A stretch of DNA of 64,000 nucleotides from an uncultured Spirochaetota bacterium (GTDB lineage: Bacteria > Spirochaetota > Spirochaetia > SZUA-6 > Fen-1364), in NCBI GenBank assembly GCA_963781885.1, contig CAWAHW010000003.1, positions 32,001 to 96,000 of the forward strand. The letters run 5' to 3'. A model generated the notes under the pieces. It saw only the letters and a program-made list of their open reading frames with translations, was not told where the DNA came from and ran no database searches. Shown piece by piece: positions 38,474 to 44,246 of this stretch (within the stretch, counting starts at the first letter, position 1; each line of letters begins with the position of its first letter). A program made the translations under genes and the position numbers.

Positions 38474-39805
38474 TCAAGGGCCCGTTCCCTCCGTCGATTC
38501 CCGGAAATCCGCCAGCCTGCGGGAGACCTCATCGGGCACGCGCGCGCGCAGCCGGACGCCCTCCGCGAGGTCCTCCTGGCTTCGGACCGACCCCCGGTCG
38601 TAAACGAGCCGCACGAGGTCGTAGCGGGCGTAGGGGAGGAGCAGGCTCACGTCGACCAGGCCGTCATCGAGGAGCTTCTCCATCTTCGAGAGGAGAGCGG
38701 GCAGCCCCGCGCCCGTGCGCGCGCTGATGGAAAGGGCATGCTCGTGCGTTCCCCCGAGCACGGCCGACATGCCGCCCGCGGGCAGGAGGTCCGCCTTGTT
38801 CCAGGCGAGGAGGCGCGGGGTTGCTGCCACTTTCAACCCGCCGAGCACCGTTTCCACGGCGGCGATCTGCTCGGTCGCGTGGGGATGGGAGCCGTCGACG
38901 ACGTGCACGATGAGCGAAGCCTCCTCTATTCCTTCCAGGGTGGAGCGGAATGCCGCCACCAGGTCGTGGGGAAGCTTGCGGATGAAGCCGACGGTGTCCG
39001 TGAGAAGGGACTCCCTGCCGCCGGGCAGCGACAGGCGGCGCGTCGCGGGGTCCAGCGTCGCAAAGAGCTTGTCCTGGACGAGGACCCCCGCGTCCGTGAG
39101 CGCATTCATGAGGGAGCTTTTACCGGCATTCGTGTAGCCCACGAGGGCGATCATGGGGAGGCCGGCGCGCTGCCGGTCGTCGCGGTGGCGCAGGCGCTGA
39201 CCGCGGAGCTCCTCCAGGCCCCGCCGCAGCACGGCAATCCGTCGCCGCGCCTGCCTGCGGTCCAGCTCCAGCTGCGTCTCGCCGGGTCCGCGCAGCCCCA
39301 CGGGGCCCGCACCCGAACCGCCGACCTGTTGGGAAAGACCCAACCGCATGCCCGCCAGGCGCGGAAGCAGGTATTGGTACTGCGCGAGCTCCACCTGCAG
39401 CTTGCCTTCCCGCGAGTGCGCGTGCTGACCGAATATGTCGAGGATGAGCCGTGTGCGGTCGATGACGCGGATGCCTTCGCCGAGCCCCTCTTCGAGCTTC
39501 CGCTGCTGTCCCGGCGAAAGCTCGTCATCGAAGAGCACGTAGCGCGCGTTGCACGAATCCACGAGCTCCTTCACCTCCTGGACTTTTCCCGAACCGATCC
39601 AGGTGCGGGCGTTCGGCCGTCCGAGCTTCTGCCAGGTGGCGCCGGCAACCGATAGGCCGGCGGTTTCGGCGAGCTTGCCAAGCTCGTCAAGGGAATCCTT
39701 GATGCTCCACGTTGAGGTGGCGTCTTTCAGCTCGACGCCGACCAGGACGGCAAGGTCTCCGGGCCCCGGACCCATCGCTTCCTGGGTGAGAAAGTCTTTC
39801 TGCAT
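38474..39805 (-). CDS. hflX: ribosome-splitting GTPase HflX
   Basis: GPGETQLELDRR, GYTNAGKS, LFATLD, DTVGFI, NKAD. Confidence 0.95.
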   Translation of the reverse strand: MQKDFLTQEAMGPGPGDLAVLVGVELKDATSTWSIKDSLDELGKLAETAGLSVAGATWQKLGRPNARTWIGSGKVQEVKELVDSCNARYVLFDDELSPGQQRKLEEGLGEGIRVIDRTRLILDIFGQHAHSREGKLQVELAQYQYLLPRLAGMRLGLSQQVGGSGAGPVGLRGPGETQLELDRRQARRRIAVLRRGLEELRGQRLRHRDDRQRAGLPMIALVGYTNAGKSSLMNALTDAGVLVQDKLFATLDPATRRLSLPGGRESLLTDTVGFIRKLPHDLVAAFRSTLEGIEEASLIVHVVDGSHPHATEQIAAVETVLGGLKVAATPRLLAWNKADLLPAGGMSAVLGGTHEHALSISARTGAGLPALLSKMEKLLDDGLVDVSLLLPYARYDLVRLVYDRGSVRSQEDLAEGVRLRARVPDEVSRRLADFRESTEGTGP

Positions 39806-39826: not shown

Positions 39827-41047
39827 TCAGTCCGCGGCGGCGAGCCCCGCGATGCGTCCCGTGCTCCATGCGGCCTGGAGGTTGAAGCCTCCCGTGAAAC
39901 CGTCGACGTCCAGGAGCTCGCCGCAGAAGAAGAGGCCGGGCACGATCCGCGATTCCATGCTCCGCTGGTCCACCTCCGTCAGGTCCACCCCACCGGCAGT
40001 CACCATCTCCTCCCCCTTGTCGCGGTCGACGATCGTGAGCGGCAGCCGGTCCATCAGCTCGACGAGCGACTTCCTTTGCGCGCGCGTGAGCACGGAGGCC
40101 GCGGCATCAGGGGAGATGCCGGCCAGCTCCAGGACCGTCTGGGCAAGGGATCGCGGCATGAGACCGCGCAGCGTGGAGAGGATCTGCTGTCGCGGCCTGT
40201 CGCGGACGGCGTCCATCAACCGGCTTTCGATGGCCTGCCGGTCGTGATCCTCCAGCACGGAAAGCCGCAGTTGCAACGGCGCGCGAGGGGACAGGGGAAG
40301 AAAGGCGCAGCGCGAGGAGACGCGGAACACGACGGGCCCTGAAATGCCTTTGTGCGTGAAAACAAGGCCGCCAGTCTCCTGCAGCGGCCGCATCCCCTCG
40401 GGATGGGCATCGACGCGCGCCCGGGGCAGCGACAGGCCCGCAAGACGCCCCGGCCAGGATTCCGCCGCGGTGAGACCCGTCAGCGCCGGGGCAAGAGGGG
40501 TCACCCGGTGACCGAGGGCCAGCGCGAGGCCGTAGCCCGAGCCCCGCGCATTCCGCCAGTCCCCTCCCGTGGCGAGGACGACGCGGTCGAAAGGTTCTTT
40601 CCCGCGCGGCGTTGCAACCAGAAAGCCCTCCGGCGCGCGGGCGATCGACGTGATCGGCTGCCGCGCGGAGATCTTCACGCCCGCCGCGTGCGCCTGTCCC
40701 TGGAGAAGGTCCCGCACGTCCTGTGCCTTGCCGGACCGGGGAAAGATCCTTCCTTCCTCCTCCTCCACGAGCGGCAATCCGCGGGAGCGGAACCAGTCCA
40801 TGGTCTCCGTCGGGCCGAAACGGGAAAAGGCTGAAAGGAGAAAGCTTCCGCCGCGCGGATAATGTGCCGCCATTCGCTTCCCTTCCGATGAGGCATTCGT
40901 GAGATTGCAGCGGCCGCCGCCGGTCCTCAGGATCGTCGCAAGGGGAACGGCCGCGTCGAAAACAAAGACGGCGGCGCCCTTCTCCTGCGCGGCAAGAGCG
41001 GCCATGATTCCCGCGGGCCCGGCGCCCGCCACGGCAATGCGCGGCAT
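39827..41047 (-). CDS. HI0933/YhiN (BaiN-like) NAD(P)/FAD-dependent oxidoreductase
   Basis: GAGPAG, TGGGRCNLTN, GRIFP, FTHKGISGP, VTAGGV, DVDGFTGGFNLQAAWSTG. Confidence 0.9.
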   Translation of the reverse strand: MPRIAVAGAGPAGIMAALAAQEKGAAVFVFDAAVPLATILRTGGGRCNLTNASSEGKRMAAHYPRGGSFLLSAFSRFGPTETMDWFRSRGLPLVEEEEGRIFPRSGKAQDVRDLLQGQAHAAGVKISARQPITSIARAPEGFLVATPRGKEPFDRVVLATGGDWRNARGSGYGLALALGHRVTPLAPALTGLTAAESWPGRLAGLSLPRARVDAHPEGMRPLQETGGLVFTHKGISGPVVFRVSSRCAFLPLSPRAPLQLRLSVLEDHDRQAIESRLMDAVRDRPRQQILSTLRGLMPRSLAQTVLELAGISPDAAASVLTRAQRKSLVELMDRLPLTIVDRDKGEEMVTAGGVDLTEVDQRSMESRIVPGLFFCGELLDVDGFTGGFNLQAAWSTGRIAGLAAAD

Positions 41048-41295
41048 GGGAGGAGTGTAGCAGGCCTGTTCTGCCGATAGCAATTCTCATTATGGTGACC
41101 GAGGGACGCAGTTCTCATTTTGTTCCCATGGTAGAAGGGCTTTTTTCATATGAAAGTGCCCGCCCGTCAGCTCCGGATGGTCCAAAATGAGACAATATGA
41201 AGTGCCCCCAGGTGGTTGCTACAACGTGGATCGGCCGTATCATGAGATTGGCGTCTCGATGCGGCACGCCACAAACAACGCACAAGGGGGCAGTC

Positions 41296-42390
41296 ATGGG
41301 TATTGTACATTACGTTGGCATGGACGTCGACAAAGAAAAGATCGCCATAGCGATCCTGAGCGGGCGCGATCAGAAGCCGAGGGCCGAGACGGTGATTCGC
41401 AATGAAAAGAGCGTAATCCAGGCCTATTTCAAGAAGCTCCAGTCCGCGGGGGACCTGGTGACATGCTACGAGGCGGGATGTCTAGGGTATTCCCTGTATC
41501 GACAATTGACGGAACTGGGTGTGCCGTGTGCGGTGCTGGCTCCGTCTCAGATTCCACATCGTCCGGGAGATCGCATAAAGACCGATAGAAGGGACGCTGT
41601 GATGCTTGCTCGCGCACTTCGGAGCGGGGATGTGAGTGCCGTTCATGTACCCACGCGGGAAGACGAAGCGGTTCGCGACTATCTACGAATGCTGGAGGAC
41701 ATGAAGTCCGATCTGCGCAAGGCCAAGCAGCGCGTGCTGGGTTTTCTTCTGCGGAGGCGGATACGTTATGAACAAGGAGCCACATGGACGCAGCCGCATC
41801 GAGCATGGTTGCAGGCTCTTGAGTTGGAGGATCCGCTGGAGCAGTTGACTCTCACCGAGTACCGCTGCCAAGTCGACGAGCTGGAGGAGAAGTGTCGGCG
41901 GATCAAGGCGGGCATCGAAGAGATCGCGGCACGTAAAAGCTATGCCGAACCTGTAGCCAAGCTGAAGGCGTTCAAGGGCGTGGAGACGCTGATCGCCTTG
42001 TCGCTTGTTTCGGAGATCGGGGACTTTCGGCGCTTTGCAGGTGCGGATCAATTCATGGCGTTTTTGGGGTTGGTGCCCTCCGAGCGATCCAGCGGAAACA
42101 AGAGGCGCTTGGGAGGAATCACAAAGGCGGGTAATTCCCACCTGCGCAAACTTCTGGTGGAGGCCGCCTGGCAATACCGCAGCTACCATCCCAGTAGCAC
42201 TCGGTTGATGAAACGACGCGAGGGTCTTTCTCCATCCTTGGTCAGCTATGCCAACCGTGCGTGCAGGCGGCTAAACAAGAAATTTCTGCGTCTGCTTTTT
42301 CGCGGCAAAGCTTCTCAGACCGTGGTGACGGCGGTGGCGCGAGAGCTCTCGGGGTTCCTGTGGGGCGCGATGGTTGATCGGGTGGCTTGA
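41296..42390 (+). CDS. IS110-family DEDD transposase/recombinase
   Basis: YVGMDVDK, CYEAG, IKTDRRDA (DEDD), GLVPSERSSG...GGITKAGN..LR..LVEAAW, VTAVAREL. Confidence 0.95.
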   Translation: MGIVHYVGMDVDKEKIAIAILSGRDQKPRAETVIRNEKSVIQAYFKKLQSAGDLVTCYEAGCLGYSLYRQLTELGVPCAVLAPSQIPHRPGDRIKTDRRDAVMLARALRSGDVSAVHVPTREDEAVRDYLRMLEDMKSDLRKAKQRVLGFLLRRRIRYEQGATWTQPHRAWLQALELEDPLEQLTLTEYRCQVDELEEKCRRIKAGIEEIAARKSYAEPVAKLKAFKGVETLIALSLVSEIGDFRRFAGADQFMAFLGLVPSERSSGNKRRLGGITKAGNSHLRKLLVEAAWQYRSYHPSSTRLMKRREGLSPSLVSYANRACRRLNKKFLRLLFRGKASQTVVTAVARELSGFLWGAMVDRVA

Positions 42391-42439
42391 GGAGGCTGCG
42401 TATGCAATCGAGGCAACCGGGACGGATGGGGAAGGTTCG

Positions 42440-42580
42440 TGGCGAACGGAGAATCCTCGAGCGGTTCTGCAGGCAGACTATGGTCTGATCCTGGTAATGA
42501 GACGGAGGCAAGCTCCTGACGATCACATTGGCCTGCGGTAACCAATCCACGCATATCAGACTGGTCGATCGTCGGTTATG
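42440..42580 (+). ncRNA. putative bridge/seek RNA of the IS (target- and donor-binding loops)
   Basis: Loop 1: CCTC..AGCGGTTCT..CAGG-CAGAC(TATG)GTCTG-CCTG..AATGAGA..GAGG, matching both strands of the target. Loop 2: closed by GACGATC/GATCGTC and containing CATATCAGAC, identical to the circle junction. Ends are approximate. Confidence 0.75.
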
Positions 42581-42935
42581 CCCTTCTCCATCTCTTCGGG
42601 TTGGCCTCGATGTTCAGAAGGAGTTCTAAAGAAAAAAGGAGGCTTTTAGAGCTTGACGGGGGCACATCATATCAGAACTGCTGTGTTCTGCCGATACACT
42701 ACTTGACGGGGGTTGGGGAAAATATGCCCGGGAGTGGAAATGTCGCCCCGGAAAGCATGAAACCTCTTGCATTTGTTTTTTGACTGTAGTATGCATTGCA
42801 AAGAGACGAGGGGAGGGGACCCGCCTTTCGCGCGCTATCCCGGAGGCACGACAGGACGAACAGACCGCCCGCTCAGACACCAAAGGGGCATGGCCCCTTG
42901 CGAATGCCTCATGAGATGAAGGAGTTCCGACAGAA

Positions 42936-44246
42936 ATGGAAACCAAAGTGCTGAGCACTGAGGAGGCAGAACCTCCAGGTACAATGCCCGTAGTCCAGGA
43001 GTTTGCCGAACTGGCCGGCATCCGGACTACGATGACCCGGTTCACGTCCTATTCCCGCCCGAGAAAGCCTTCGCCCGTTGCGCCCCGCTTCACCGTTTCC
43101 AATCGATCCGAAGAGTTCCGCGCGCGCTTCTTTCCCCTTGCCACGGCCGCCGAATGGTGCGACTGGCGCTGGCAGCTGCGAAACCGCGTCCGCTCGCTCG
43201 AGGACCTGGAAAAGATGGTGCGGCTCACACAGGACGAGCGCACGGCGATCGCCCGGCACACCGGATCGCTGCCTTTCGCCATCACTCCGTACTACCTGAG
43301 CCTTGTCGACCCCGACAACGCGGAACAGCCGCTGCGCCGTACGATGATCCCGGTAACGGATGAATACCTGCGTATGCCGGGTGAGGCCGCGGATCCGCTG
43401 GGTGAGGATGACGACAGCCCGGTGCCCTGCATCGTGCATCGCTATCCGGACAGGGCCCTCTTCCTTGTCGCCAACTCCTGCGCCTCCAACTGCCGCTACT
43501 GCACGCGGTCGCGCATGGTGGAAAACCCCAAGAACGACAGCATCTTCTTCCAGTCGCAGTGGGAAGAGGCCATTTCCTACATCGAAAGCCACCCCGAGAT
43601 CCGCGACGTGCTACTCTCCGGGGGCGATCCCCTGACGCTCTCCGACGAGAAGCTGGACTGGCTTCTCTCGCGGCTGCACCGCATCCCCCACGTGGAGTTC
43701 CTCCGCATCGGGACCAAGGCGCCCGTGGTGATGCCCCAGCGGATCACGACCTCGCTCCTGCGCGTGCTGAAGCGCTACCATCCCCTCTGGATGAGCATCC
43801 ATTTCACGCATCCGGAGGAGCTCACGCCCGAAACCGTGGAGGCCTGCGGACGCCTGGCGGACGCCGGCATCCCCCTGGGGAGCCAGACGGTTCTGCTGGC
43901 GGGCATCAACGACACCGTGGAGGTCATGACGCGCCTCATGCACGGCCTCTTGAAGGCGCGCGTGAAGCCCTACTACCTCTACCAGTGCGACCCGATACTC
44001 GGCTCGGCGCACTTCCGCACCCCGGTCCAGAAGGGCCTGGAGATGATCCAAGGCCTGCGGGGACACACCTCGGGATACGCGGTTCCGTCGTACGTGATCG
44101 ACGCCCCCGGGGGAGGCGGCAAGATACCCCTCCTGCCCGAATACGTCGTCGGCCGCGACGGAAATGACCTCGTGCTCCGCAATTACCAGGGTCTCCTCTT
44201 CCGCTACCCGGACACGTTGGGCGCCAAACAAGAGCCCGCGACATGA
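42936..44246 (+). CDS. kamA: KamA-family radical SAM aminomutase (lysine 2,3-aminomutase-like)
   Basis: DWRWQLRN, ITPYY, HRYPDR, CASNCRYCTR, LLSGGDPL, DAPGGGGKIP (PLP lysine). Confidence 0.88.
   Translation: METKVLSTEEAEPPGTMPVVQEFAELAGIRTTMTRFTSYSRPRKPSPVAPRFTVSNRSEEFRARFFPLATAAEWCDWRWQLRNRVRSLEDLEKMVRLTQDERTAIARHTGSLPFAITPYYLSLVDPDNAEQPLRRTMIPVTDEYLRMPGEAADPLGEDDDSPVPCIVHRYPDRALFLVANSCASNCRYCTRSRMVENPKNDSIFFQSQWEEAISYIESHPEIRDVLLSGGDPLTLSDEKLDWLLSRLHRIPHVEFLRIGTKAPVVMPQRITTSLLRVLKRYHPLWMSIHFTHPEELTPETVEACGRLADAGIPLGSQTVLLAGINDTVEVMTRLMHGLLKARVKPYYLYQCDPILGSAHFRTPVQKGLEMIQGLRGHTSGYAVPSYVIDAPGGGGKIPLLPEYVVGRDGNDLVLRNYQGLLFRYPDTLGAKQEPAT

Follow-up and report, generated by a model that had tools for sequence, protein, structure and literature searches.

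An IS1111-Group Insertion Sequence of an Uncultured Spirochaetota Bacterium with a Predicted 3' Guide RNA for Target and Donor

The DNA considered here, referred to as the window, is a stretch of 64,000 nucleotides from an uncultured Spirochaetota bacterium (assembly GCA_963781885.1, contig CAWAHW010000003.1, positions 32,001 to 96,000 of the forward strand), and coordinates are counted from its first letter. At 41190-42676 it carries what is, judged from its sequence, a complete and apparently intact insertion sequence (IS) of the IS110 family and, within it, of the IS1111 group. We consider it highly probable that this element encodes a recombinase guided by an RNA from its 3' non-coding region, that this RNA presents a target loop and a donor loop, that strands are exchanged at a dinucleotide AG and that the element is excised as a circle. 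This reading is carried by the family membership, the copy number, the single insertion site, a covarying RNA structure, and the covariation of guides with targets and of the donor loop with the right end of the element.

The Element and Its Copies

The features of the element, all on the plus strand, are the following.

41190-41191, plus: left core copy, AG, the only sequence common to both junctions across the family
41192-42673, plus: IS proper, between the core copies, starting ACAATATG and finishing CATATC
41195-41209, plus: left subterminal inverted repeat, ATATGAAGTGCCCCC, kept in relatives
41216-41243, plus: promoter-like site in the left end, TTGCTA-16-TATCAT (9 of 12 positions, a consensus match only)
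41296-42390, plus: transposase gene, 364 aa from an ATG behind GGGGG, from which the N-termini of the relatives align
42413-42604, plus: predicted long guide RNA, ~192 nt, with an outer stem of 42413-42435 and 42581-42604
42653-42658, plus: outward -35 box TTGACG, which circularization would place 16 nt upstream of G-ACAAT
42658-42672, plus: right subterminal inverted repeat, GGGGGCACATCATAT
42674-42675, plus: right core copy, AG, assigned on the same basis as the left one

Counting one core copy, the element is 1484 bp long. Its 15-bp subterminal inverted repeats, of a length within the 7-17 bp that mark the IS1111 group, start 3 nt (left) and 1 nt (right) inside the core copies, and 14 of the 15 positions agree when 41195-41209 is set against 42658-42672 in reverse complement. 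The left end is short (104 nt from core to start codon, 106 nt with the core) and the 3' non-coding region long (283 nt from stop codon to core, 285 nt with the core), a layout that is itself characteristic of the IS1111 group. Subterminal repeats and a long 3' non-coding region are described as hallmarks of this group (Siddiquee et al., 2024, PMC11187229, section 6; Durrant et al., 2024, PMC11208160). Together with the Pfam and NCBIfam matches of the transposase, these features agree with the original prediction, made from the letters of the window, of a complete IS110/IS1111-type element, and every motif named in that prediction was found in place.

In the genome (7 contigs, 4.6 Mb), the IS occupies nine places, comprising seven full-length copies, one copy that is incomplete at the edge of the visible sequence and one that is internally deleted. 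All eight visible left flanks end CAAAATG and all eight visible right flanks begin ACTGCTG, as had been foreseen for the other copies, and the visible junctions without exception read CAAAATG-AG..AG-AACTGCTG (hyphens mark the boundaries of the core). Insertion into a single sequence and in a single orientation, with no duplication beyond the AG core, is what is expected of the IS110 family. The seven full copies, spread over six of the seven contigs, are 100% identical (rounded), and this identity indicates recent activity of the element.

The same identity could be explained by a relic that expanded recently and is now inactive, its copies having multiplied by duplication of the host repeat in which they lie and not by transposition. 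In favor of such a relic are the one internally deleted copy, the stop codon or frameshift present in 5/9 of the relatives taken from genome contigs, and the fact that no circle or empty-site polymorphism was seen at the locus in four runs (contigs only, without joints). We nevertheless regard it as very improbable, given seven copies at 100% on six of seven contigs and an open transposase reading frame; moreover, the host repeats differ in sequence and in their flanking direct repeats, and therefore the IS entered each repeat separately. The deleted copy (L009, C2:775982-776866) covers IS positions 603-1487, with the first six bases of the left end fused to about position 603; what remains is the C-terminal portion of the gene together with the RNA region and the right end, and the copy lies in the usual target.

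The Transposase

The sole open reading frame (ORF) in 41190-42676 is on the plus strand and, at its longest, starts at 41197 and encodes 397 aa, of which the 364 aa from the ATG at 41296 are taken as the transposase. The protein combines an N-terminal RuvC-like DEDD domain with a C-terminal Tnp domain, as is typical of the IS110 family (Pfam PF01548, E 3.7e-13, and PF02371, E 4.8e-22), and scores 237 bits, against a cut-off of 140, with the NCBIfam model NF033542, "IS110 family RNA-guided transposase". Of 8000 scored database candidates, ~7600 are related, the nearest among them being 91% identical, while the solved structures related to it are remote (IS621, PDB 8wt6, E 1e-7; ISCro4, E 1e-6; each over ~68 residues).

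The acidic columns D10, E59, D97 and D100 are unchanged across five aligned proteins and, by their position, may correspond to the catalytic residues of IS621. The motif GLVPSExSSG is likewise unchanged in the five proteins (G258 L259 x P261 x x x x S266 G267), and it conforms to the C-terminal motif GL-P----S(T)G of the IS1111 group (PMC11187229, section 6). With 364 aa, the transposase falls outside the 330-350 aa quoted for this group, as do relatives of 356-367 aa, although that range is descriptive and does not define the group (PMC11187229).

Structure of the Predicted Guide RNA

Within the predicted guide RNA, two domains and their segments can be delimited, and a shorter form of the RNA probably spans 42445-42520.

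42448-42516, plus: target-binding domain, with GGAG/CTCC (42448-51 with 42513-16) and CCTC/GAGG (42455-58 with 42505-08)
42460-42468, plus: 5' target guide AGCGGUUCU, in DNA letters AGCGGTTCT, which pairs with top-strand AG+AACTGCT with one G-T wobble
42470-42493, plus: hairpin closing the target loop, CAGGCAGAC-uaug-GUCUG-au-CCUG (CAGG-CAGAC 42470-78, GTCTG 42483-87, CCTG 42490-93)
42496-42503, plus: 3' target guide AAUG-AG-AC, comprising the left target (AAUG), the core (AG) and the first two IS bases (AC, handshake-like)
42517-42574, plus: donor-binding domain, with an outer stem (42517-24 with 42567-74, including GACGATC 42518-24 and GATCGTC 42567-73) and an inner stem (UGCGG 42534-38 with CCACG 42547-51)
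42525-42533, plus: donor-loop 5' strand ACAUUGGCC, of which AUUG (42527-30) is complementary to CAAT in the left end (41193-96)
42552-42559, plus: 3' donor guide CAUAUC-AG, which repeats the right end and core

The non-coding regions of 10 and then of 40 relatives, from genome and metagenome contigs, were aligned, L029 being added by hand to alignment A3. Across the 40 sequences, standard pairs occupy 96.9% of the cells of the proposed structure, compared with 90.2% in shuffles and 40-50% with slid partners. Changes on both sides of a pair occur at 15 pairs in 114 cells, whereas slid partners give 6-13 pairs and 23-36 cells. Compensatory changes are found at 13/16 pairs of the outer stem. In the target domain, GGAG/CTCC shows a swap from G-C to C-G in 13/40 sequences and CCTC/GAGG is invariant, while the hairpin that closes the target loop is too variable to be aligned, although all 34 distinct versions (34/34) fold alike from different sequences. 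In the donor domain, the outer stem has one compensatory pair change, in 4/10 sequences, and the inner stem, UGCGG/CCRCG, is invariant save for G-U changes and surrounds a 19-nt insert in L082 and L085. G-U pairs are frequent, and the strand of the RNA is therefore the plus strand. The folding and covariation analysis that had been proposed for this region thus gives a divided result: the covariation in 40 relatives supports the structure, whereas the fold of the single sequence does not.

An alternative hairpin, ATTGG/CCAAT, in the donor domain was dropped, given that the insert-bearing L082 and L085 retain UGCGG/CCGCG as the enclosing stem. The additional pairs ATTGG/TCAGT and TTGG/TCAA proposed by RNAalifold never show changes on both sides and were left uncounted. 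Covariance models of Rfam gave no family up to E 1 in 40500-43500.

Target Guides Change with the Flanks

The two guides of the target loop read opposite strands of the insertion site. The segment 42460-68 matches the top strand, and AAUGAG (42496-501) repeats the left target and the core letter for letter and would pair with the bottom strand; the two matches (42460-68 and 42496-502) overlap at AG, as is the rule for seekRNAs and bridge RNAs. Published IS1111 seekRNAs have their top-strand match on the 5' side of the one to the bottom strand, with an overlap of both at the point of insertion (PMC11187229, section 9), and the order and overlap of the guides found here agree with this arrangement.

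Both loops could be extracted by regular expression from 44 of 84 sources (the window and L027-L109). The others, truncated contigs or sources with distant proteins, were set aside, and some of the expressions missed L029, L044 and L078. The 5' guide was scored at its best offset, alike for own and other flanks; a fixed CT register had failed at 4/34 loci and given wrong scores where a locus carried a 1-nt bulge. For 24 distinct right flanks, the 5' guide scores 5.29/7 against its own flank and 3.82 against the flanks of others, and for 18 distinct left flanks, the 3' guide scores 2.89/5 and 1.64, respectively; in neither case did any of 10000 permutations reach the observed value (0/10000). 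Several relatives with quite different targets show guide matches of 7/7. The two target guides proposed for the first internal loop thus change together with their flanks, and at the level of sequence comparison this covariation settles their role.

That the protein itself selects the target through the terminal inverted repeat (TIR) of the host repeat, the loop matches being coincidental, would be compatible with the window taken by itself, in which a 7-nt target match is within chance (655/2000 shuffles of the non-coding region). The covariation contradicts this explanation, which we find scarcely credible: guides and flanks change together, across 24 right and 18 left flanks, while the proteins stay 58-91% identical, and target choice set by the guide is the published behavior of the family (PMC11187229, section 10).

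The expectation of a new target specificity was correct, yet this is an ordinary property, as nearly each lineage of the family has a target of its own. The largest clade of relatives (L030-L034 and L047-L070, from many metagenomes) has a single conserved site, ...TAACATAG-AG-TT(C/G/A)AG(T/C)TGCC..., in which small changes of the target are mirrored by small changes of the guide. The target of this clade may in turn form the end of a different mobile element.

The 3' Strand of the Proposed Donor Loop Follows the Right End

The 3' strand of the second loop repeats the right end and core of the element. A 10-nt identity with the circle junction, CATATCAGAC at 42552-61, had been described for this strand, and a match of this kind is rare by chance (9/2000 shuffles). 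The relatives mostly read UAUAUCAGUC, and ~7-8 nt of the 10-mer are conserved; compared across the family, 8/10 bases of the proposed identity hold and the last two do not.

The ends and the donor domain hardly vary among the 44 loci of the family, and for this reason plasmid relatives further out were examined. In a relative from Sinorhizobium, read in six copies and with a protein 42% identical, the three intact right junctions read CATAAG-AG, and the loop reads CAUAAGAG in 5/6 copies and CAUAUGAG in the sixth. In an Agrobacterium relative (42%; one copy, with ends deduced from repeats and guides), the end reads CATGAG-AG and the loop AUGAGAG, while a Leptospira relative (46.5%) and L082/L085 (47%) have ATATC in both end and loop. 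Sequence comparison therefore shows the 3' segment of the donor loop following the right end in three lineages, with ATATC, ATAAG and ATGAG. In three of the six Sinorhizobium copies (L111, L112 and L115), small deletions lie exactly at the right-end junction and remove the last ~11 IS bases or the first ~10 flank bases, which would fix those copies in place.

For the 5' strand, the register was fixed from the inner stem, and only positions 5-7 of the left end vary. A hand count over five lineages gives agreement of the AUUG strand with the left end at 3, 3, 2, 1 and 2 of 3 positions, that is, 11/15 for own pairs and 27/60 for crossed pairs, and L046 has a 7-nt perfect complement to its left end. 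These counts lend moderate support to ATTG as the 5' donor guide and are suggestive, not conclusive. The assignment of the second loop to the donor consequently stands for CATATC-AG, which follows the right end in three lineages, and in moderate degree for ATTG.

A different view of this domain is that only the first loop guides, that 42517-42574 is a scaffold or processing element, that the protein recognizes the ends via the subterminal repeats and that the CAUAUCAG match does not act through base pairing. For ISEc11, an 82-nt RNA with the target match alone gave 42% transposition, compared with 15% for the long form (PMC11187229, section 10), and the authors left the recognition of the ends open (PMC11187229, section 14). 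Furthermore, the covariation of the donor loop comes from three lineages only, because ends and donor domain vary so little in the 44 loci, and the 5' strand fits poorly in L082/L085 and the Leptospira relative. Against this view stand the second-loop 3' strand, which changes with the right end, and the rarity of the 10-nt junction match. The two RNA domains also share one architecture, each with a stem, a 5' strand, a hairpin preceded by AUCC and a 3' strand ending AG, and predicted IS1111 bridge RNAs contain donor-complementary nucleotides according to Durrant et al. (2024, PMC11208160). On balance, we judge a purely structural second domain unlikely and prefer the reading in which it serves as a donor loop.

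A further candidate for a right end, CTTGACGGGGG in the right flank (42702), was considered; it has two non-IS occurrences in the genome, about what is estimated for chance.

The AG Core and Possible Handshake Bases

Throughout the 44-locus family, left ends begin with ACAATATG and right ends close with CATATC, and AG are the sole bases common to both junctions; a large clade, for instance, reads ...CATAG-AG-ACAAT and CATATC-AG-TTCAG. Compared in this way, the core common to the family comprises the two bases AG and not AGA, as had been proposed from the window, where AGA appears because the target by coincidence continues with A, the base with which the IS itself begins. The target-loop 3' strand has A after AG in 44/44 relatives, whereas the target has A there in 11/44, and therefore the third A follows the IS and not the target. 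Of the proposed core, the AG was retained and the target-derived A was not.

Read on the opposite strand, the core AG is CT, the core of IS621. On that strand, which is the one opposite to the gene, the target loop would present along its 3' strand the right target, the core and the donor-matching bases, an order that would equal that of guide, core and handshake in IS621, for which right target guide, core and handshake guide are described by Hiraizumi et al. (2024, PMC11208158). That the A behind the core never varies suggests, tentatively, a use of handshake bases by IS1111-type RNAs as in IS621, but in mirrored orientation. If this is true, handshake bases would tie the IS1111 and IS621 groups to one strand-exchange mechanism. 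A handshake was also considered for the donor loop, where AG is followed by the first base of the target in 12/24 distinct cases, compared with an estimated ~9 by chance, which is not significant.

The Host Repeat and Site Occupancy

The insertions lie in a repeat that resembles a miniature inverted-repeat transposable element (MITE). In the window, its parts are the following.

41067-41079, unstranded: direct repeat TGTTCTGCCGATA around the MITE-like host, with its other copy at 42684-42696
41080-41189, unstranded: body of the MITE-like repeat, closing at 41189 with CAAAATG, the end of the left target half
41080-41094, minus: outer, degenerate 15-mer of the MITE-like repeat
41108-41122, minus: inner 15-mer of the MITE-like repeat, GCAGTTCTCATTTTG
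42676-42683, unstranded: right target half, AACTGCTG, the last 8 bp of the TIR of the repeat

Without the IS, the MITE-like repeat is ~117 bp long, and its TIR is the target. One end has an outer degenerate and an inner perfect 15-mer and the other a single perfect 15-mer, the termini reading CAGCAATTCTCA...TGAGAACTGCTG; the IS is inserted 8 bp from the single-copy end. Ten such elements were found by script on contigs C1, C2, C3, C4, C6 and C7, and at 8/10 of them direct repeats of 7 to 10 bp are legible by eye. No full-length parent element with MITE-like ends was present among the 25 sites that match the 15-mer with at most two mismatches.

In uninterrupted form, the 15-mer occurs in the genome 15 times exactly and twice with one mismatch, and in the reversed control not once (0). 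All nine insertions occupy the terminal site of the host repeat. When exact 15-mers are sorted by the next base, those continuing ...ACTGC-T are occupied in 9 cases and empty in 2, while those continuing ...ACTGC-A or -G, which are internal, are occupied in none and empty in 13 (Fisher p 4.2e-5, or 9e-5 without the copy whose right flank is unseen). Target choice may be gated beyond the 15-bp match, a proposal that we put forward only tentatively, as the less likely case, and in common with the handshake bases discussed above. The ninth and most distal base of the 5' guide may provide such a gate, as may the end or the structural context of the host repeat. For ISPpu10, a preprint reports a determinant beyond base pairing, the stem-loop of the target (bioRxiv 10.64898/2026.03.19.712850), and a comparable structural cause may be a possibility for the occupancy of 9 terminal and 0/13 internal sites.

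One empty terminal site, on C6 (partner end of the repeat at C6:136248), reads CAAAATGAGACTGCTG and is one A short of the usual target; a mutation or a scar left by excision could account for this. One contig of an independent study carries the target in uninterrupted form at a different locus. Flanks that resemble the MITE-like ends of this genome also occur in relatives (AG-AATTGCTG in L029, L044 and L084, and CCAAAATG-AG in L081), and several lineages may target relatives of the same repeat.

Relation to Known Systems

The closest parallels are the IS1111 elements with seekRNAs, ISEc11, ISPa11 and ISKpn4 (Siddiquee et al., 2024, PMC11187229), which share with the present element the DEDD transposase with its GL-P----SG motif, the subterminal repeats, the long 3' non-coding region, the order and overlap of the guides, the use of one site and orientation, a target in a repeated, foldable sequence and, as predicted here, a promoter at the circle junction. 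The present element differs from the ISEc11 group in its longer protein (364 aa versus 330-350) and predicted RNA (~192 nt versus 145-170; PMC11187229) and in its ends, target and AG core, and it is known from sequence alone.

IS621 (Durrant et al., 2024, PMC11208160; Hiraizumi et al., 2024, PMC11208158) likewise has a target loop and, as proposed here, a donor loop, with both strands read, and a dinucleotide core, AG here being CT on the other strand. In contrast to IS621, the RNA here lies 3' and not 5' of the gene, and the guides follow a mirrored order with respect to the gene strand. The long subterminal repeats, the remote protein similarity and the asymmetric donor loop, with strands of 9 and 15 nt, are further differences.

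A known IS1111-type element is also reported to have the TIR of another mobile element as its fixed target; the proteins are ~26-27% identical, and its host is a large transposon, in contrast to the ~117-bp non-coding host here. Insertion into repetitive palindromic or stem-loop targets, with many copies in one repeated intergenic element as seen here, is known for ISPpu9 and ISPpu10 of Pseudomonas putida, which belong to other subgroups and use other targets.

All of the findings fit the published model of seekRNAs and bridge RNAs, and both the mechanism and its readability from sequence were already published in 2024. The donor matches or cores may already stand in the supplements of these papers (IS1111 RNA folds, target logos).

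Proposed Mode of Action

In the proposed mechanism, a DEDD/serine recombinase would be guided by RNA from the 3' non-coding region, ~42413-42604. The first loop would read the target on both strands, AGCGGUUCU pairing with top-strand AG+AACTGCT and AAUG-AG with the bottom strand of AATG+AG. The second loop would hold the joined ends of the IS, with CAUAUC-AG reading the right end and core and AUUG probably reading bases 4-7 of the left end. Strand exchange would take place at the dinucleotide AG, and the element would be excised as a circle, at whose junction the promoter TTGACG-16-GACAAT would form and drive the transposase gene and then the RNA behind it. The geometry of this junction promoter (TTGACG, a 16-nt spacing, GACAAT) reads as it had been predicted, its TTGAC is invariant in 10/10 aligned relatives, and a promoter at the circle junction is the published situation for this family (PMC11187229). 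No promoter-like site is present on the plus strand in front of the RNA, which fits co-transcription with the gene followed by processing.

Several points weigh against this reading. RNA expression, RNA ends, processing, protein binding, circle formation and strand-exchange chemistry are assigned by homology with published systems. Single-sequence folds do not yield the structure reliably and are no better than shuffles (z -1.8 and +0.5), and the donor inner stem contains a C-A mismatch in the window element. The permutation tests of guides and flanks ignore the relatedness of the sequences, and the right-flank match is 3/7 in L027, L040, L072 and L065, of which L027 and L040 represent one insertion, its gene interrupted by a stop codon. 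In the Sinorhizobium copy L116, the loop has CAUAUG where the right end is CATAAG. The 5' donor guide is weak, agreeing in full in two lineages and less well in the other three. Finally, the short target-loop RNA of ISEc11 alone sufficed for transposition (PMC11187229, section 10), and therefore the donor loop may not be needed in the IS1111 group. Since the target match and the fold are within chance in the window alone, the weight of the argument comes from the covarying structure and from the covariation of guides and flanks in the relatives.

The element presents a clean, natural RNA-guided recombinase whose guides are legible from the sequence, and it leaves the known mechanism unchanged. 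It comes with a data set of nine identical insertions, at least 44 relatives with invariant ends and many targets, and three lineages in which the donor loop follows the right end, which is useful for two questions on the IS1111 group, namely whether the long RNA contains a working donor loop and whether handshake bases exist in this group. The 9 occupied terminal sites, set against 13 empty sites with the same 15-mer, additionally offer a natural contrast in specificity.

Genomic Surroundings

The IS and its host repeat occupy an intergenic gap among ordinary chromosomal genes. Reading of the ORF translations indicates a GTPase-like protein at 38474-39805, a flavoprotein-like protein at 39827-41083 and a radical-SAM aminomutase-like protein at 42936-44246.

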